Of a stretch of DNA of 15,946 nucleotides, positions 4,327 through 15,946 are shown one piece after another; positions within the stretch are counted from its first letter, which is position 1, and each line of letters begins with the position of its first letter. The stretch comes from a virus (lineage: Duplodnaviria; Heunggongvirae; Uroviricota; Caudoviricetes). Made by a program: the position numbers and the translations under genes. Location of the stretch: the IMG/VR virus record IMGVR_UViG_2645728048_000025; one strand, written 5' to 3'. The notes below the pieces were generated by a model that did no database searches, was not told where the DNA came from, and saw nothing but the letters and a program-made list of their open reading frames with translations.

Positions 4327-5763
4327 TCAGAATCCTCCTTTCTTCTTGGACTGCGGTTCCTCGCGTTCACGGCGGCGCATTTCAGCAGACTGTTGGTCTG
4401 TGTCATAAATAGCGCCATTTGCCTGTATGCAATACACCGTGCCGGTATTGCCATGACGATTGAGGCGAAGGATTAGTTCGGTTTCACCAGGAGGAACGCT
4501 GTCATCAAAAGCACCTTCACGATGGATCCCCACCCAATAATCGCAATCCTGTTCAATCTGCCCTGTATCTCGTGAGTCACTTGGTAATGGGCGTTTATTG
4601 GTTCGGCTTTCCAGTGCGCGGTTAAGCTGTGTCAGAAGCACAACAACGCAATCAAGCTCTTTGGCAAGGTTCTTCAGTCCTTTGGTGATCATGCCGTAAG
4701 CAAGGTCGTTGCGATCGGCCTTCTCAGCAGTCATTAGTGTCAGGTAATCGACCAGAATCATGCCAACACATCCTTTTTCTCGCTTGATTCGACGGCTTTC
4801 GCTGACGATTTGAGCCAGAGATAATCCCGGCGTGTCGTCGATGTAAAGCAGGTCGATTTCACTCAAGCGATTGGCTGTTTCGATCGCCCTGTTGAAGTCA
4901 CCATCGTAATCACCCTGATAGCCGTCATCAGCGTCATTTGTCGCCGGAAGGTAAAAAATATTCGGGTTAACACCTGACTTCTGTCCCACCAGTTTTTCCA
5001 GTATCTGGTCACCTGGCATTTCAAGGCTGAACATCAGAGCGGGCTTTTTCTCATGCACTGCACAGTTGATTGCCATCTGGCTGTATAGCGTCGTTTTCCC
5101 CATCTTAGGGCGAGCGCCAATGACAAACAAAGAGCCTTTCACCAGACCTTTCGGTGACAGCATCCTGTCCAGCGATGGGATCCCTGTGCTCATTCCCCGT
5201 TGTTCGCCTGATGGGTCAAATCGCTTCTCAAGGTCGCTAACCCAGTCTTCCATGACCTCACCAAATGAGCGAAGGCCGCGACGCGATCCGGTTTTTGCAT
5301 GGTCTGTCAGTTGCGTGAAAATCGCCTGAATAGCTTCGTACTTCTGCGTTGCAGTCATTCCATTGCGGGAATAGAGCAATTCCGTCGCTTCAGTCATGCG
5401 GTTGATGGCGTAGCGTTCCATTGCGGTTTCACGAACCTGCATTGCATAGGCAACGATGTTTGCTGCGCTTGGCGTGTTCTTTGCGATCTCAGCGATATAA
5501 GCAAAACCGCCAACAGACGCCGTTAACGATTTACGCTCCAGTTCATCGAAAAGCGTCAGGCCATCTACTGGCTTTTGCTCCCGGTGCATTCTGGTTATTT
5601 CTTCGAAAAGGATTTTGTGTGGTCGGCCGTAAAATGAATCAGGCTTCAGCATCGCCAGAACTTTCTGGACGCGCTCACTGCTGTCATCATCCAGAAGCAA
5701 TCCACCAATCACCGCCTGCTCTGCCTCGATGCTATGGGGCGGCGCATAAAAATTATCGGTCAT
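4327..5763 (-). CDS. Replicative DNA helicase, DnaB family (P22 gene 12-like)
   Basis: Walker A GARPKMGKTT and DnaB-like layout over about 478 aa. ATG at 5763 (MTDNFYAPPH) preceded by GAGGGTGAA is preferred over the track's GTG start at 5778; it overlaps the O-like stop by 11 nt. Confidence 0.88.
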   Translation of the reverse strand: MTDNFYAPPHSIEAEQAVIGGLLLDDDSSERVQKVLAMLKPDSFYGRPHKILFEEITRMHREQKPVDGLTLFDELERKSLTASVGGFAYIAEIAKNTPSAANIVAYAMQVRETAMERYAINRMTEATELLYSRNGMTATQKYEAIQAIFTQLTDHAKTGSRRGLRSFGEVMEDWVSDLEKRFDPSGEQRGMSTGIPSLDRMLSPKGLVKGSLFVIGARPKMGKTTLYSQMAINCAVHEKKPALMFSLEMPGDQILEKLVGQKSGVNPNIFYLPATNDADDGYQGDYDGDFNRAIETANRLSEIDLLYIDDTPGLSLAQIVSESRRIKREKGCVGMILVDYLTLMTAEKADRNDLAYGMITKGLKNLAKELDCVVVLLTQLNRALESRTNKRPLPSDSRDTGQIEQDCDYWVGIHREGAFDDSVPPGETELILRLNRHGNTGTVYCIQANGAIYDTDQQSAEMRRREREEPQSKKKGGF

Positions 5764-6514
5764 CGTGTTCACCCTCACGAACTTTCAGGTAGGTATTATC
5801 GTTAAGCAGGAAATCAAATCCCTTTTTGTGCCAGACGGTTCCGCGATGATGGTTTGGGCGCTCTTCGAACATCCATCGGCAATTTTCGCCTACGTAGCTC
5901 AAATAATTTCTCCAGTCCTGCATCGTGAACCCATGCCCGTCAAGCTGGCGGGTTATCACTCCGGCTTTGCGCCAGAACGTTCGGATCTGGTTTTTACGCT
6001 TGTCATTCAGTGCGCGGATTCTTGGCGCTTCAGGAAGGATTTCGTGGTAAGCATCGACAACATCCTGACAGCTAACGGAAGGTTTTTTCTTGTCAGACTT
6101 TTTGTCTGCTGTGGCACTCTCTAATACGTCAGTATTAGAGATATTATTTATATTATTGTTTATGGACAACCGTTGGACAACCGTTGGACAATTTTTTGCC
6201 TGAAAATCGTCATATTTAACGATTGTAAACAGGCTAAATTTCTTCCCCATCGAGCAAATATTAAGCATCCCTTTCGACTCAAAAGTCCGTAATAAGCTCC
6301 GAACTTTGTTGTCGGGGATGAATGTTTCTCTGACCAGCGACGGGCGTCCAGTTATCATCTGACCGCGATCAACAGTTATCGGACCGATATCCGTATTGAC
6401 GACAGTAGATTCGTGATTAGCCTTGAGGATTAAGTGAAGCCAAAGATGTACTGCCTGAGAGTCCTTATAGAGCCTGCTGTCCATAAACTGGCGGTGTATA
6501 GAGACATACCCCAT
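5753..6514 (-). CDS. Replication initiator, lambda O-like / P22 gene 18-like
   Basis: Start chosen at MGYVSIHRQFMDSRLYKDSQAVHLWLHLILKA (ATG 6514 preceded by CAGGAGG), a typical replication-protein-O N-terminal domain. An Asn/Ile-rich linker (SINNNINNISN) is encoded by the AT-rich ori segment. It sits upstream of the helicase. Confidence 0.8.
   Translation of the reverse strand: MGYVSIHRQFMDSRLYKDSQAVHLWLHLILKANHESTVVNTDIGPITVDRGQMITGRPSLVRETFIPDNKVRSLLRTFESKGMLNICSMGKKFSLFTIVKYDDFQAKNCPTVVQRLSINNNINNISNTDVLESATADKKSDKKKPSVSCQDVVDAYHEILPEAPRIRALNDKRKNQIRTFWRKAGVITRQLDGHGFTMQDWRNYLSYVGENCRWMFEERPNHHRGTVWHKKGFDFLLNDNTYLKVREGEHDDR
6118..6195. repeat. Candidate origin of replication inside the O-like gene: palindrome, AT-rich tract, 11-bp iterons
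   Basis: 24-bp perfect palindrome TCTCTAATAC-gtca-GTATTAGAGA (6118-6141); AT-rich tract 6141-6162; tandem TGGACAACCGT at 6163-6173 and 6174-6184 plus a partial third copy TGGACAATTTT (6185-6195). Confidence 0.55.
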
Positions 6515-6563
6515 ACTGGATGCCTCCTGATGTTGTACAGGGTTATGCCTGTAATCAGCTAAC

Positions 6564-6725
6564 TTAACGACGCCCATGTTTCACTCCTGCTTTGGCTAGT
6601 CTGTAAACACCAACAAGGCGCTCTGCGAACGCCCTGTTATTTGCTGCGGCTACCACTAATCCCTCAGGTGAATCAGGGTGTCGAATCTCTTCTTTTTCCT
6701 GGTATTTCTTACGACGTTTTGTCAT
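6564..6725 (-). CDS. Small basic ORF (53 aa) between cII and the O-like gene; uncertain
   Basis: MTKRRKKYQEKEEIRHPDSPEGLVVAAANNRAFAERLVGVYRLAKAGVKHGRR with AGGAG 5 nt upstream of the ATG. Its start codon coincides with a CATAAT -10-like hexamer on the opposite strand, so the interval may be regulatory instead. Confidence 0.3.
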   Translation of the reverse strand: MTKRRKKYQEKEEIRHPDSPEGLVVAAANNRAFAERLVGVYRLAKAGVKHGRR

Positions 6726-6759
6726 AATTACTCCTGTGGATTGATCCAGTCTTTCTACA

Positions 6760-7038
6760 TCAGGCCTCGAAGAATTCGCCGTTCTTCGGGGCTTTTTCTT
6801 TTGTCAGCATTCTGGCTACTTTCTTAGCCAGTTCCGCCAACTCCTCGTCTTCAACACCCCATTCAAGAACAGCAAGAAGCATTCCCATTTTGGGGATGAA
6901 GCTGTCTTTCCATCGAGAAATTTGCGATTCATTAATCCCTAACGCGTCGGCAACCTTTCGCTGACCACGTACAGCAATTCGATTCAGGATGTTGCTTGTA
7001 ATTGCATTCGCTTTCTTGCGAGTACTTGTAAGTTCCAT
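6760..7038 (-). CDS. cII: CII transcriptional activator (lambda cII / P22 c1 homologue, 92 aa)
   Basis: From the internal ATG (MELTSTRKKANAITSNILNRIAVRGQRKVADALGINESQISRWKDSFIPKMGMLLAVLEWGV...); the ESQISRWK ... MLLAVLEWGV stretch matches lambda CII as I recall it. Confidence 0.85.
   Translation of the reverse strand: MELTSTRKKANAITSNILNRIAVRGQRKVADALGINESQISRWKDSFIPKMGMLLAVLEWGVEDEELAELAKKVARMLTKEKAPKNGEFFEA
6767..6802 (+). terminator. Plus-strand intrinsic terminator inside the 3' end of cII (antisense), OOP-RNA-like
   Basis: Stem CGAAGAA / TTCTTCG (6768-6774 / 6782-6788) with a 7-nt loop, then GGGC and TTTTTCTTTT. Antisense to the cII 3' end, the position of the OOP terminator in lambda. 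Confidence 0.45.
6992..7005 (+). promoter_or_regulatory. CII-binding motif TTGC-N6-TTGC, candidate PRE -35 region (transcription towards cI)
   Basis: TTGC (6992-6995), ttgtaa, TTGC (7002-7005) on the plus strand within the 5' part of the cII coding region, the arrangement of PRE in lambda. Confidence 0.45.
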
Positions 7039-7096
7039 ATGTAAGTATTTCCTTAACAAATAAGAAGTTATGCGCATCAACTTATGCGCGTTGTAT

Positions 7097-7139
7097 TCCC
7101 GCATTTCGGCGGGAATGAGGACCATGACTGTTAAAGAGC
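7097..7139 (-). promoter_or_regulatory. nutR: boxA GCTCTTTAACA plus boxB hairpin
   Basis: Minus-strand boxA (plus 7129-7139) and boxB TCCCGCCGAAATGCGGGA (plus 7097-7114), immediately downstream of cro; both elements identical to nutL. Confidence 0.7.
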
Positions 7140-7146
7140 GGTGTTG

Positions 7147-7341
7147 CTATTTGTTTTTCTTGTTGCTTGGGAAAGGACGAACTTCCTCTCCAATCACACT
7201 GCCATCAGGCTTTACCGTAACCATGATGTTACGGCCTGCCAGAATGGCCTTGCTGATAGCGCACTGGATTACACCAAAGTCACTGGCTGCTTTAGCCTGT
7301 CCATGGATTTTGGCGTAATCGGCAAGTGTCATTCGAATCAT
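7147..7341 (-). CDS. cro: Cro repressor (64 aa)
   Basis: [62 protein letters not shown], collinear with lambda Cro (C-terminal FPSNKK). ATG at 7341 preceded by GGAGAG. Confidence 0.85.
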
Positions 7342-7370
7342 ATGCACTCTCCGTTATTAACCATGAACAA

Positions 7371-7447: not shown

Positions 7448-8164
7448 ATGGAAAATAAAAAATCACTGACGACAGAACAGCTCGAAGACGCTAAGCGGCT
7501 TAAGGCTTTGTATGAGTCAAAAAAGAAAGAATTGGGAATAACCCAATACTCAATCGCTGATGAACTGGGTATCACCCAAGGAGCGGTAGGGCATTATCTT
7601 AATGGCAGAAACGCGCTAAACGTTGAGGTTGCATCTGGTTTTGCACGATTGTTGCAAGTCTCAATTGCTGATTTTAGCCAGTCAATTGCTGCCAAGGTTG
7701 CAGAACAGGCAGAAAGCCTTAAGAGCGATGCCAACGTAAGGTATGCAGGGGAATACAGAGCAGGAAAGAGGTATCCGGTGTTAAGCAGTATCCAGGCTGG
7801 CTCGTGGTGTGAAGCATGCGAACCATACACCATTAAAGACATAGATGTTTGGCTTGAGTCTGACGCGCATATTCAAGGTAATGCGTTCTGGCTTAAAGTG
7901 GAAGGTGATTCAATGACGGCACCGGTTGGGTTAAGCATTCCAGAGGGAACATTCGTTCTTTTCGATACCGGAAGGGAGGCGATCAACGGCAGCTTGGTCA
8001 TAGCAAAACTTTCTGACTCTAACGAAGCAACATTCAAGAAGCTGATAATCGACGGCGGAAATAAATACCTCAAGGGACTTAATCCTGCATGGCCTCTCGT
8101 GCCAATCAATGGAAACTGCAAGATTATAGGCGTTGCAATTGAGACAAAACTAAGGCTGGTTTGA
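7448..8164 (+). CDS. cI: CI repressor (HTH N-terminal domain plus S24 LexA-like autopeptidase domain)
   Basis: HTH region (ITQYSIADELGITQGAVGHYLNG), putative Ala-Gly cleavage site in YPVLSSIQAGSW, catalytic Ser in EGDSM and Lys in FKKL; collinear with lambda CI. Confidence 0.9.
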   Translation: MENKKSLTTEQLEDAKRLKALYESKKKELGITQYSIADELGITQGAVGHYLNGRNALNVEVASGFARLLQVSIADFSQSIAAKVAEQAESLKSDANVRYAGEYRAGKRYPVLSSIQAGSWCEACEPYTIKDIDVWLESDAHIQGNAFWLKVEGDSMTAPVGLSIPEGTFVLFDTGREAINGSLVIAKLSDSNEATFKKLIIDGGNKYLKGLNPAWPLVPINGNCKIIGVAIETKLRLV

Positions 8165-10844: not shown

Positions 10845-11351
10845 ATGGCAAGCAGAGGCGTAAATAAGGTGATTATCCTTGGTCGGGTAGGACAAGACCC
10901 GGAAGTTCGATACTCACCATCAGGAACAGCGTTCGCTAACCTGACAATAGCCACGTCAGAACAATGGCGAGATAAAAATACTGGCGAGCAAAAGGAATTG
11001 ACTGAATGGCATCGTGTTGCTGTATCCGGGAAACTGGCTGAGGTCGTGGGGCAGTATGTGAAAAAAGGTGATCAGATTTATTTCGAGGGAATGCTGAGAA
11101 CCAGAAAGTGGAAAGACCAGTCAGGGCAAGACCGTTACACAACCGAGGTTCATGTCGGAATTAATGGCGTGATGCAGATGCTTGGCGGCATTGGCGACAG
11201 CAAACAACAAGCAGCCAGCAGGCAATCACAGAAGCCACAGCAGCAATCATCACCAGCACAACACAACGAACCTCCGATGGATTTTGACGACGATATACCC
11301 TTTGCACCAGTAACTCTCCCCTTCCCTCGTCACGCTATTCACGCAATTTAA
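10845..11351 (+). CDS. ssb: Single-stranded DNA-binding protein with a 15-aa extension beyond the DDDIPF tip
   Basis: OB-fold N-terminus ([39 protein letters not shown]), Gln-rich linker, MDFDDDIPF, then [15 protein letters not shown] before the stop. Confidence 0.85.
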
Positions 11352-13968: not shown

Positions 13969-14169
13969 ATGCAACACGAACTACAACCTGATTCACTGGT
14001 TGATTTGAAATTCATCATGGCCGATACTGGCTTCGGTAAAACCTTCATCTATGACCGGATTAAGTCCGGCGACCTGCCTAAAGCCAAAGTTATCCACGGA
14101 CGAGCAAGATGGTTATATCGTGACCATTGTGAATTCAAAAATAAGCTCTTAAGCCGCGCCAATGGGTAA
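13969..14169 (+). CDS. AlpA/Xis-family small DNA-binding protein (excisionase-like, 66 aa), with no adjacent integrase
   Basis: LVDLKFIMADTGFGKTFIYDRIKSGDLPKAKVIHGRARWLYRD fits the AlpA-type winged-helix pattern; GGAGA upstream of the ATG. Confidence 0.55.
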   Translation: MQHELQPDSLVDLKFIMADTGFGKTFIYDRIKSGDLPKAKVIHGRARWLYRDHCEFKNKLLSRANG

Positions 14170-14242
14170 AATAGCGGGTAAAATATTTCTCATATCTCAA
14201 AAACACCATTCCAATCAATCCCCTGCTGCCTCAAGTAGATGT

Positions 14243-14257
14243 CTGCAGGGGACACCA
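14243..14257 (+). other. tRNA-derived fragment B (3' end CTGCAGGGGACACCA); candidate att copy or host junction
   Basis: Matches the 3'-terminal acceptor/T-stem sequence of argW as recalled, including the terminal CCA; the preceding bases AGATGTC look like a degenerate T-loop. Confidence 0.45.
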
Positions 14258-14645
14258 GATACCCTTCAAACGAAATCTACCTTCACCCCGTAAAAGATGG
14301 GTTTGGCAGCACACTTGCCTTATATCTACTCATTTTTACTGCAACAGGTTGAAATCTCAGCACTGTCAGAAAGCGCTGATGACTAAACAGCCCTGGGCCG
14401 GGCGATGTAACCATCACACAGAATCCTGATAGCGAAATATGGCGTGACTCGATACTTCACTCCGCAATGCATTCCTTGATGAATTCGCAGGACCGTGATA
14501 CACGGGACAGGTCACTGAATGACGACAATGTCCTGGAAATCAGCGAACCGCGCATCTGAAGTACATTTGAGCGACTGTACCAGAACATGAATGAGGCGTT
14601 TGGATTAGGCGATTATTAGCAGGGCTAAGCATTTTACTATTATTA

Positions 14646-14689
14646 TTTTCCGGTTGAGGGATATAGAGCTATCGACAACAACCGGAAAA
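14646..14689. repeat. 11-bp perfect inverted repeat TTTTCCGGTTG / CAACCGGAAAA with a 22-nt spacer, just downstream of the cscB stop
   Basis: Seen directly in the sequence; no U-tract follows the stem on either strand, so it is not a canonical intrinsic terminator. Confidence 0.4.
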
Positions 14690-14698
14690 AGTTTACGT

Positions 14699-15946
14699 CT
14701 ATATTGCTGAAGGTACAGGCGTTTCCATAACTATTTGCTCGCGTTTTTTACTCAAGAAGAAAATGCCAAATAGCAACATCAGGCAGACAATACCCGAAAT
14801 TGCGAAGAAAACTGTCTGGTAGCCTGCGTGGTCAAAGAGTATCCCAGTCGGCGTTGAAAGCAGCACAATCCCAAGCGAACTGGCAATTTGAAAACCAATC
14901 AGAAAGATCGTCGACGACAGGCGCTTATCAAAGTTTGCCACGCTGTATTTGAAGACGGATATGACACAAAGTGGAACCTCAATGGCATGTAACAACTTCA
15001 CTAATGAAATAATCCAGGGGTTAACGAACAGCGCGCAGGAAAGGATACGCAACGCCATAATCACAACTCCGATAAGTAATGCATTTTTTGGCTCTACCCG
15101 ATTCACAAAGAAAGGAATAATCGCCATGCACAGCGCTTCGAGTACCACCTGGAATGAGTTGAGATAACCATACAGGCGCGTTCCTACATCGTGTGATTCG
15201 AATAAACCTGCATAAAAGACAGGAAAAAGTTGTTGATCAAAAATGTTATAGAAAGACCACGTCCCCACAATAAATATGACGAAAACCCAGAAGTTTCGAT
15301 CCTTGAAAACTGCGATAAAATCCTCTTTTTTTACCCCTCCCGCATCTGCCGCTACGCACTGGTGATCCTTATCTTTAAAACGCATGTTGATCATCATAAA
15401 TACAGCGCCAAATAGCGAGACCAACCAGAAGTTGATATGGGGACTGATACTAAAAAATATGCCGGCAAAGAACGCGCCAATAGCATAGCCAAAAGATCCC
15501 CAGGCGCGCGCTGTTCCATATTCGAAATGAAAATTTCGCGCCATTTTTTCGGTGAAGCTATCAAGCAAACCGCATCCCGCCAGATACCCCAAGCCAAAAA
15601 ATAGCGCCCCCAGAATTAGACCTACAGAAAAATTGCTTTGCAGTAACGGTTCATAAACGTAAATCATAAACGGTCCGGTCAAGACCAGGATGAAACTCAT
15701 ACACCAGATGAGCGGTTTCTTCAGACCGAGTTTATCCTGAACGATGCCGTAGAACATCATAAATAGAATGCTGGTAAACTGGTTGACCGAATAAAGTGTA
15801 CCTAATTCCGTCCCTGTCAACCCTAGATGTCCTTTCAGCCAAATAGCGTATAACGACCACCACAGCGACCAGGAAATAAAAAAGAGAAATGAGTAACTGG
15901 ATGCAAAACGATAGTACGCATTTCTGAATGGAATATTCAGTGCCAT
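14699..15946 (-). CDS. cscB: LacY-family (MFS) oligosaccharide:H+ symporter, sucrose permease CscB-like (415 aa, complete)
   Basis: N-terminus MALNIPFRNAYYRFASSYSFLFFISWSLWWSLYAIWL and overall layout match LacY-family permeases, and to my recollection E. coli CscB specifically. The start codon is at the last base of the window. Confidence 0.8.
   Translation of the reverse strand: MALNIPFRNAYYRFASSYSFLFFISWSLWWSLYAIWLKGHLGLTGTELGTLYSVNQFTSILFMMFYGIVQDKLGLKKPLIWCMSFILVLTGPFMIYVYEPLLQSNFSVGLILGALFFGLGYLAGCGLLDSFTEKMARNFHFEYGTARAWGSFGYAIGAFFAGIFFSISPHINFWLVSLFGAVFMMINMRFKDKDHQCVAADAGGVKKEDFIAVFKDRNFWVFVIFIVGTWSFYNIFDQQLFPVFYAGLFESHDVGTRLYGYLNSFQVVLEALCMAIIPFFVNRVEPKNALLIGVVIMALRILSCALFVNPWIISLVKLLHAIEVPLCVISVFKYSVANFDKRLSSTIFLIGFQIASSLGIVLLSTPTGILFDHAGYQTVFFAISGIVCLMLLFGIFFLSKKREQIVMETPVPSAI

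Follow-up and report, generated by a model that had tools for sequence, protein, structure and literature searches.

Inside its replication initiator gene, the window (the whole stretch of 15,946 nucleotides analysed here) carries a putative origin of replication of lambda-like build, a main reading that is well supported by sequence comparison and by analogy with lambda. We consider it likely, for the explanation as a whole, that positions 6118-6191 form a cis-acting origin of the Sf6/HK620/phage L-type lambdoid module, which is present here as a deletion allele and probably weakened. Judged by its sequence, this type of origin is already known, a putative rep_origin being annotated at this region in the records of Sf6 and phage L, and the window represents a rare shortened form of it. 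It is the comparison with relatives that gives the observation its strength, not the statistics within the window. The features concerned are:

4327-5778, minus strand: DnaB-type replicative helicase (P22 gp12/Sf6 gp44 type), intact, 478 aa (Pfam DnaB_C, 3e-60; DnaB, 1.2e-30)
5753-6577, minus strand: initiator gene ("O-like", Sf6 gp43/phage L gp18 type), open reading frame of 274 aa, PHROG 345, 22 codons shorter than the modal 296 aa
5768-6079, minus strand: C-terminal domain (aa 167-270), presumed helicase-recruiting module, subject to mosaic exchange among relatives
6080-6199, minus strand: predicted disordered interdomain linker (aa 127-166, pLDDT < 50), holding the whole origin
6118-6141, no strand: inverted repeat with 10-bp arms and 4-nt spacer, found by repeat search and folding; hairpin or cruciform possible
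6142-6162, no strand: AT-rich tract, putative DNA-unwinding element, A/T at 20 of 21 bp, encoding INNNINN
6163-6191, no strand: single cluster of three 11-bp-phased boxes, found by TRF and repeat search; putative initiator-binding sites
6218-6508, minus strand: predicted winged-helix N-terminal domain (aa 24-120, AlphaFold2 pLDDT 80-92), presumed box binder

All three putative origin elements are found where the sequence-only reading had placed them, within the initiator coding sequence. In the direction of transcription (5' to 3') they follow each other as three-box repeats, AT tract and inverted repeat with 4-bp spacer. The same reading had likened this architecture to lambda; compared directly, the order of the elements equals that of lambda ori, and the annotation of Sf6 and phage L agrees. 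Outside a single gap, the locus shows 99.4% DNA identity with the Sf6 gene 43 region. In phage L six 11-bp repeats were called the likely origin (PMC8022706), and genetic evidence cited in the same paper has the whole phage L replication region standing in for that of P22 (PMC8022706).

The gap is what sets the window apart. Apart from 66 bp, its initiator gene matches the O genes of HK106, mEp234 and Sf6 at about 99% identity, and in the alignment with two-cluster relatives it is short of exactly one 66-bp unit (22 codons). Fewer iterons than in lambda had been noted; this is not a property of the origin type, whose norm is six 11-bp boxes arranged as two clusters of three, 66 bp apart, and the window is one 66-bp unit short and retains one cluster. 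On this comparison the window carries a deletion allele, the in-frame loss of one 66-bp unit, with the junction somewhere inside the 30-bp repeat at 6163-6191. The unit, 22 codons of the disordered linker, was lost by recombination or slippage between two 30-bp clusters of identical sequence, and only the cluster adjoining the AT tract is left. Among relatives with variant boxes, a count in P0093/L136 gave the same 66-bp cluster spacing, and the others come close to it (spacer about 37 bp). The window origin is thus better annotated as a shortened Sf6/phage L-type allele than as a novel origin marked by "fewer iterons".

Two clusters are the modal state, not an invariant one. Of 111 viral-contig loci with sufficient flanking sequence, 104 had the two-cluster core, as did all eight species-level relatives, down to 52% identity of the N-domain, and at least two clusters were found in each of the 43 isolated-phage records. 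The repeat itself, whose absence from related functional phages was to speak against an origin, is thereby present in 43/43 of these records. The single-cluster allele was seen in just one of 5,426 complete E. coli genomes, compared with 144 that have two clusters or more (seven of them at least three). In nature the 66-bp unit occurs in 1, 2, 3 or 5 clusters; E. coli EC190329 (CP142949) represents the three-cluster form and ETEC1739 the five-cluster form.

Lambda mutants r93, r96 and r99 have lost origin function (ori-minus) through small in-frame deletions of iterons, and their O protein stays functional. The initiator protein of the window is probably still functional, and the single-cluster origin is probably weakened rather than dead. 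The contrary reading holds that a single cluster makes a fully sufficient, normal origin and that cluster number (1-5) is neutral minisatellite length variation in a disordered linker. The initiator and helicase frames of the window are intact, and a Klebsiella prophage with one cluster shows no obvious defect within 10 kb on either side, so that a single cluster may suffice. The natural occurrence of the unit in 1, 2, 3 and 5 copies fits with this, as does lambda, where, according to PMC7466680, unwinding and in vitro replication need only the two AT-proximal iterons. Against it stand the retention of the two-cluster form in relatives down to 52% N-domain identity, the lack of any single-cluster form among the 43 isolated-phage records and the ratio of 1 to 144 in complete E. 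coli genomes. Moreover, the flanks of five other single-cluster settings, a convenience-chosen set, were inspected, and three of these show a damaged replication module or a decayed prophage; there the allele adjoins a split helicase gene in one case and a helicase nonsense mutation in another, and in the third it lies in an IS-riddled remnant prophage. In Stx-phage replicons, finally, the distal iterons are bound weakly, yet in vivo replication needs them (PMC7466680). Taken together, we regard full sufficiency of one cluster as rather unlikely.

The 66-bp cluster could also be a natural copy-number switch of origin strength, in which case single-cluster alleles would be selected lesions and not neutral decay. 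Such lesions would shield the host from lethal in-situ replication of non-excising prophages ("replicative killing"), and mutations inactivating the helicase would protect it likewise. We rate this idea as distinctly unlikely; if it were true, the 1-, 2-, 3- and 5-cluster alleles would form a natural series for the number of initiator sites needed in vivo. The series of one to five clusters is in any event a natural allelic series for testing the iteron requirement. The occurrence of single-cluster alleles beside broken helicase genes further suggests a cheap marker for prophages without autonomous replication. The practical value is modest, the origin type being already annotated.

The deletion could also have arisen on the computer, by collapse of the two identical 30-bp clusters in a short-k-mer assembly of a prophage that in reality has both. 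The contig (JHSN01000009.1, 194 kb) is indeed a draft that ends inside the prophage, in the Q gene, and the repeat TGGACAACCGTTGGACAACCGTTGGACAAT is exact over 30 bp, so an assembler with k <= 30 could bypass the loop. Nevertheless, the same single-cluster allele is found in the finished chromosomes of E. coli (CP054662) and Shigella flexneri (CP000266), the identical 274-aa protein is encoded on contigs of at least two assemblies, and independent single-cluster alleles exist in Salmonella (277 aa) and Klebsiella. For the window we therefore consider an artefact highly unlikely, and as a general explanation of single-cluster alleles assembly collapse was rejected, since finished genomes carry the allele. 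Truncation of the prophage was likewise considered, as no integrase lies beside the torI-like gene; this sign was rejected, since the homologous E. coli F11 prophage has the same layout. In KplE1/Sf6-type prophages int and xis lie at opposite ends.

Beyond the boxes lie the AT tract and the inverted repeat. The tract TATTATTTATATTATTGTTTA (6142-6162) measures 21 bp with one G, close to the approximately 22 bp given before, and GC content falls to 0.20 over 6120-6159. All eight distant relatives have an AT-rich tract at the same position with a changed sequence. What had been described as a perfect 24-bp palindrome has to be corrected: the arms TCTCTAATAC (6118-6127) and GTATTAGAGA (6132-6141) show 100% complementarity across a gap of 4 nt, and since the centre GTCA is not self-complementary, the element is a hyphenated inverted repeat of 10+4+10. 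As single-stranded DNA it folds with -7.6 kcal/mol (z = -7 against shuffles). No other inverted repeat of the window combines perfect arms of 10 bp or more with a loop of up to 8; such repeats are expected about 0.35 times per random 16-kb sequence, at least one occurring in 23% of random sequences, and hence the inverted repeat alone is not significant.

Its conservation in relatives is more telling. Eight distinct arm sequences stay complementary, with 96% of the cells paired as compared to 30-46% at slid control positions, and in eight of the ten pairs both sides vary. The score for covariation, 0.767, is reached by none of 500 shuffles (0.22). The family element has arms of 9-10 bp and a 4-nt loop TRAC (TAAA in one type) past the AT tract, downstream of the boxes, and the window conforms to it.

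Together with the T-rich run that follows on the plus strand, the inverted repeat might instead be an intrinsic terminator or RNA hairpin of a transcript antisense to the initiator gene, and no origin element. An RNA hairpin would likewise covary, a loose scan picks out 6118-6141 together with TATTATTTAT as a plus-strand terminator candidate, and the phage L record carries terminators predicted by software at the corresponding position. The stem is weak, however (three GC pairs in ten, -7.6 kcal/mol), A's interrupt the tail, and shuffled sequences give as many scan sites (1.0 expected). A pair of the G-U type occurs in only one of 100 cells, the other changes being Watson-Crick on both strands as for a dyad acting at the DNA level, and in the lambda origin this place is likewise taken by an equivalent inverted repeat. 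The element matches no Rfam family, and Rfam and tRNA scans gave nothing relevant to the origin. A terminator is thus a very improbable explanation, and we retain the inverted repeat as a candidate origin element.

The box cluster consists of the tandem repeat TGGACAACCGT with a period of 11, 2.6 copies (2.5 had been counted before) and 100% matches at 6163-6191, one of only four TRF matches in the window; on the coding strand the box reads TTGTCCAACGG. Counts of the motif TGGACAA in the window are unconvincing alone (5 seen versus 2.3 expected, reached by 14 of 200 shuffles). The boxes are identical to those of Sf6 and HK106, of the TGTCCAACGG type in 11-bp phasing inside the initiator gene. 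As noted from the sequence at the outset, the origin DNA also encodes the Asn/Ile-rich linker of the protein, and translation gives NCPTVVQRLSINNNINNISNTDVLES. Due to the period of 11 bp the three identical boxes fall in three different codon frames, and selection on the protein cannot hold them identical. Third-codon-position variability is 0.0035 in the unbiased cluster versus 0.0527 in the flanking coding region of the N-domain, i.e. synonymous sites are about 15-fold less variable in the boxes than in adjoining coding DNA, and the inter-cluster spacer of two-cluster relatives shows no codon-position periodicity. Where the N-domain of the initiator diverges or is swapped, the variant boxes RGCCAACGAAA, AATCCAAAGGA and ATTACCAGCAA replace TTGTCCAACGG, with the 11-bp phasing retained across all variants. 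It is hardly tenable, then, that the repeats are a mere protein-level repeat (CPTVVQRLS) in a low-complexity linker without a cis role, the origin lying elsewhere: they are translated and the peptide CPTxVQRxS recurs among homologues, but disorder is predicted for the segment they encode, the box sequence follows the DNA-binding domain, and frames and synonymous sites speak for constraint on the DNA. A dyad CAACNGTTG at the box junctions was also considered as a dimer site resembling lambda iterons and was rejected, since the variant boxes of relatives L131-L133 and L136 contain no dyad at all.

Boxes identical over three frames, box sequence that tracks the N-domain and a covarying inverted repeat, with one likewise placed in lambda, make up this support. 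From the sequence side, these comparative data are the strongest non-experimental support so far for the putative Sf6/phage L-type class of origins.

The name "O-like" given to the initiator stands by its position and by its PHROGs label (phrog_345, "replication initiation O-like", E = 5e-80); it does not stand by sequence, as similarity to lambda O was not detectable (BLASTP E = 4.4). Lambda O matches Phage_rep_O (PF04492) at 5.7e-36, whereas the window initiator gave no PF04492 match at E <= 0.01 in Pfam, and the proteins of HK106 (O, the two-cluster counterpart with 99.8% identical DNA), L131 and L132 gave none even at E <= 10. Pfam, NCBIfam and PDB sequence searches with the initiator returned nothing useful, only PHROGs named it an initiator. 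Given no detectable homology to lambda O, the mechanics of lambda may not transfer. A protein search with the N-domain by itself gave nothing but truncated "partial" proteins of little diversity, and a search at full length was required. In structure comparison by Foldseek against PDB, the N-domain had no match at E <= 0.001; its best matches are weak (E at least 0.04) and all of them winged-helix DNA-binding domains (CodY C-domain, TubR, ArsR/SmtB, MarR). The C-domain is a separate mosaic module, 94% shared with ST160/phage L gp18, whose N-domain differs. In one hybrid relative (L130) a lambda-O-like C-domain takes its place, with a lambda-P-like gene behind it.

We propose that the winged-helix N-domain of the initiator would bind the 11-bp direct-repeat boxes, which lie one helical turn apart and would thus face the same side of the helix. 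The nucleoprotein complex so formed might strain and then melt the adjoining AT-rich tract, and the C-domain would recruit the DnaB-type helicase that the phage itself encodes directly downstream. Beyond the AT tract, the covarying inverted repeat may act at unwinding or helicase loading, either through a structure (hairpin or cruciform) or as a dyad site. A difference from lambda in binding specificity had been anticipated; since the boxes are directly repeated at intervals of one helical turn and are not palindromic sites of 18-19 bp, it is probably the binding mode that differs, not specificity alone.

Concerning known systems, the closest are Sf6, HK106, mEp234, HK75 and IME10, which share about 99% DNA identity with the window and are alike in boxes, AT tract, inverted repeat, initiator and downstream DnaB-type helicase. 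In Sf6 the putative rep_origin lies at 28385-28480 in gene 43 (AF547987), and the record notes similarity to HK620. Phages of the Sf6/HK106 type have two three-box clusters in a 96-bp core and an initiator of 296 aa, whereas the window has one cluster; its core of 30 bp instead of 96 bp accounts for the initiator of 274 aa. Gene 18 of phage L, ST64T and ST160 is alike in architecture and inverted repeat, with a C-domain 94% identical. It differs in the N-domain (about 65-75% identical), in boxes that are TGGACATCCGT variants in two clusters, and in the loop of the inverted repeat, GTTA as compared to GTCA in the window. The phage L origin has been described as "six imprecise repeats of 11 bp, TGTCCAACGGA" (PMC8022706).

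Lambda ori, like the candidate in the window, lies inside the initiator gene between two domain-coding parts and reads, in the direction of transcription, from repeats to AT tract to inverted repeat with 4-bp spacer. In gene O it comprises four 18-19-bp iterons, an AT-rich region of about 38-40 bp and a 12+4+12 inverted repeat, the positional counterpart of 6118-6141 (563-590 in the lambda sequence, L135). Marks of hybrid crossovers are placed at the end of the AT-rich tract, adjoining the inverted repeat. In lambda, O dimers bind iterons that are imperfect inverted repeats of 18-19 bp (PMC7466680), in contrast to the three 11-bp direct repeats in the window, whose palindromic sub-motif is not conserved in relatives. 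Helicase supply differs as well, with a phage DnaB homologue in the window versus P and host DnaB in lambda; a lambda-type C-domain with a P-like gene occurs only in the hybrid.

Iteron plasmids share with the window helix-phased direct repeats, an adjoining AT-rich tract and a winged-helix initiator, the latter predicted in the window. Plasmid iterons usually measure 17-22 bp. The window origin differs in lying inside the coding sequence of its own initiator, for which no Pfam or NCBIfam match to a plasmid Rep family (Rep_3, RepA-type) was obtained; the resemblance to plasmid Rep is that of a generic winged-helix fold. The Stx phages P27 and 933W carry six lambda-type iterons instead of four in the O gene, with matching extra linker residues, and belong to another initiator family and iteron type than the window. 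Their variation in iteron number is fixed between phage lineages, whereas in the family of the window it is a 66-bp polymorphism of one to five units.

The window spans the early part of a lambdoid prophage, in the orientation opposite to the usual drawing of lambda, and its initiator gene contains the three elements which a sequence-only reading had taken for a replication origin:

4327-5778, minus strand, DnaB-type helicase gene
5753-6577, minus strand, initiator gene, 274 aa
6118-6127 and 6132-6141, inverted repeat, arms 10/10 complementary, 4-nt centre
6142-6162, AT-rich tract, 21 bp with a single G
6163-6191, tandem repeat TGGACAACCGT, 2.6 perfect copies
6564-6725, minus strand, small ORF
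6760-7125, minus strand, cII
7147-7347, minus strand, cro
7448-8164, plus strand, cI
14699-15946, cscB-like sugar transporter gene, right end of the window

All three elements stand at the coordinates first reported, but the "perfect 24-bp palindrome" was an overstatement, since its centre GTCA is not self-complementary. The origin DNA is translated into NCPTVVQRLSINNNINNISNTDVLES. In the AlphaFold2 model this peptide falls in a low-confidence linker (aa 127-166, pLDDT <50), presumably disordered, which connects a confident N-domain (aa 24-120) to the C-domain.

The cscB-like gene at the right end places the phage in an Escherichia chromosome. The window is the reverse of positions 1-16577 of E. 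coli GCA_001265995.1 contig JHSN01000009.1, a draft contig terminating within the Q antiterminator gene. The prophage end lies at 13969-14169 (plus strand) and 14170-14698; in the homologous prophage of E. coli F11 a torI/xis-like gene adjoins cscB with no integrase between them. A tRNA search of the whole window returned no gene. At 6759-6804 (plus strand) there is a weak Rfam ctRNA match (19 bits, E = 0.81, far under the gathering score), antisense to the cII 3' end, the expected place of lambda oop RNA; an antisense RNA of oop type may lie here. Imperfect 21-bp tandem repeats of about 2 copies each (74-79% matches) occur at 7647-7691 and 11212-11260, one within the cI repressor gene, the other within the SSB gene.

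The sequence-only reading noted fewer iterons than in lambda. The low count is explained by the loss of 66 bp from the form usual in this family, not by a different design. The O genes of HK106, mEp234, HK629, IME10, HK75 and Sf6 share 99% identity with the window's initiator gene, and each is 66 bp longer. In the alignment these relatives carry the 2.6 x TGGACAACCGT cluster twice, in identical copies with a 37-bp spacer between them, and the window carries it exactly once. Scanning viral contigs with a pattern that every allele shares, we classified 120 loci, the vast majority with two clusters; the canonical 96-bp core is present in 104 of the 111 with enough flank to test. Among these loci only a mosaic prophage (L021) resembles the window in having a single 2.6-copy cluster; at three others the single cluster has 1.6 or 3.6 copies, and one has three clusters. 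Isolated phages of E. coli, Shigella, Salmonella and Cronobacter with this origin type have two clusters in 43 of 43 records. Among 5,426 complete E. coli genomes, 144 carry the two-cluster sequence, 7 three or more clusters and 1 the single-cluster junction; strain ETEC1739 (L146, NZ_CP122758, 440-732) carries five clusters, spaced exactly 66 bp apart, in a 1089-bp initiator gene. Initiator lengths in a large protein database fall into classes of 274, 296 and 318 aa, matching cluster numbers, and short alleles have arisen independently in Salmonella (277 versus 299 aa) and Klebsiella (274 aa, 73% identity). On these counts across contigs, phages, genomes and proteins the 66-bp unit is a copy-number polymorphism with a mode of two and the window at the low extreme; as 1, 2, 3 and 5 copies are observed, it behaves as a minisatellite. 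That two clusters were collapsed into one during assembly of the window's draft contig is improbable; the single-cluster junction is also present in a complete genome.

Two observations concern the database proteins. P0075 (292 aa) reads IVQRLSNGCPTQTPVMARLSAEIVQRLS over the iteron region (protein alignment A5, columns ~133-190), as if one frameshift within the two clusters had been compensated by another, and this too suggests that the peptide encoded there is under little constraint. Many entries among P0002-P0033 are "partial" (105-190 aa), and several of the aligned ones end at or just past the iteron-encoded segment, suggesting that short-read contigs frequently end where the N-domain and C-domain mosaic modules meet.

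Eight species-level relatives, with N-domains 52-96% identical to that of the window, all keep one layout: a set of three 11-bp-phased boxes (putative initiator sites) on each side of a ~37-bp spacer, then ~20 bp of AT-rich DNA and an inverted repeat whose loop is 4 nt long. The sequence of the boxes changes in step with the N-domain, being TTGTCCAACGG in close relatives, RGCCAACGAAA in locus L131 and AATCCAAAGGA in L132 and L133. In a natural recombinant (P0093, locus L136) only N-domain residues ~58-130 and the boxes (ATTACCAGCAA) differ, while the 66-bp spacing, inverted repeat and C-domain are retained. With a period of 11 bp, the three identical boxes fall into three different codon frames (TGT CCA A|CG GTT GTC CAA |CGG TTG TCC A), and selection on the protein therefore cannot hold them identical. 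Over 86 distinct two-cluster sequences, variability at third codon positions is 0.0035 in the cluster lying outside the search pattern used, versus 0.0527 in the neighbouring stretch that codes for the N-domain; the inter-cluster spacer evolves with no codon periodicity.

On the within-window test alone the inverted repeat is statistically unremarkable (0.35 expected by chance). Across the relatives it has eight distinct arm sequences, every one still complementary: 96% of cells are paired and both sides change in 8 of 10 pairs. The covariation score is 0.767 versus 0.22 when shuffled (0 of 500 shuffles reach 0.767), and slid controls give 30-46% pairing. With a G-T/G-U type pair in just one cell, a DNA-level dyad fits slightly better than an RNA hairpin, a question which pairing does not settle.

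For the initiator the match is to PHROG 345 ("replication initiation O-like"); NCBIfam and the PDB sequences gave none, and similarity to lambda O is not detectable in the sequence. In structure comparison the N-domain model weakly resembles winged-helix DNA-binding domains. The C-domain, on sequence comparison, is a separate mosaic module, 94% shared with gp18 of phage L and ST160, whose N-domain differs. In relative L130 a lambda-O-like C-domain takes its place, with a lambda-P-like gene after it, and the box, AT-tract and inverted-repeat layout is retained. Together, L130 and the C-domain mosaicism argue that the cis architecture travels with the N-domain, independent of helicase supply.

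As to the consequence of losing one cluster, the survivor is the one adjoining the AT tract, and the protein is probably functional, because the 22 lost residues sit in the linker modelled as disordered. Evidence on iteron number in lambda-type systems points both ways: two AT-proximal iterons are enough for unwinding and in vitro replication, yet in Stx-phage replicons the two weakly bound distal iterons are needed for plasmid establishment in vivo (PMC7466680). In the only complete E. coli genome carrying the single-cluster allele (IGC_RcoliRes_1.1, NZ_CP054662; L134, 6153-8618), the adjacent helicase gene appears in the annotation as a pair of pseudogene pieces ~1 kb apart, presumably split by an insertion. 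In two Salmonella prophages, identical over the helicase region (L143, 10824-12340; L144, 8832-10270), a DnaB-type helicase gene with an in-frame stop after codon 188 adjoins a single-cluster allele; this Salmonella lineage is represented by 24 contigs. In Shigella flexneri 5 str. 8401 (CP000266; L141, 4261-9408 and 18810-19966) the single-cluster allele sits in a remnant prophage without structural genes: its leftward operon contains IS1, IS4 separates cro from cII, and past the lysis genes an IS3-family element directly adjoins a chromosomal gene. The Klebsiella example is apparently intact over the 10 kb examined on either side, and the window's own helicase gene is intact. In this small convenience sample the settings lean towards attenuation, fitting relaxed selection and also selection against trapped prophages that replicate lethally in situ; such "replicative killing" is documented for lambda (PMC3349717).

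The reading as a lambda-style origin inside the initiator gene is right in outline, and the origin is of the Sf6 and phage L type, which is already known, as a prediction only. The Sf6 GenBank record reads [quoted passage not shown], and the phage L record likewise annotates a putative origin. The feature itself is ordinary; its side products are strong comparative support for this putative origin class and a natural allelic series of 1-5 clusters. A search of the literature, with incomplete coverage, turned up no account of an allele with one cluster, of the series of cluster numbers or of covariation in the inverted repeat. For phage L, PMC8022706 names six imprecise 11-bp repeats as the likely origin; in gene 18 of P22 it counts four repeats of ~20 bp, all different, and it refers to genetic evidence that the L replication region as a whole can stand in for that of P22. 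Lambda, read directly along O transcription, has four iterons, an AT-rich tract of ~40 bp and an inverted repeat whose 12-bp arms flank a 4-nt spacer, and the window has the identical order. Unlike in lambda, the initiator of this origin type lacks detectable similarity to O, the boxes are direct 11-bp repeats and the phage encodes its own DnaB-type helicase.
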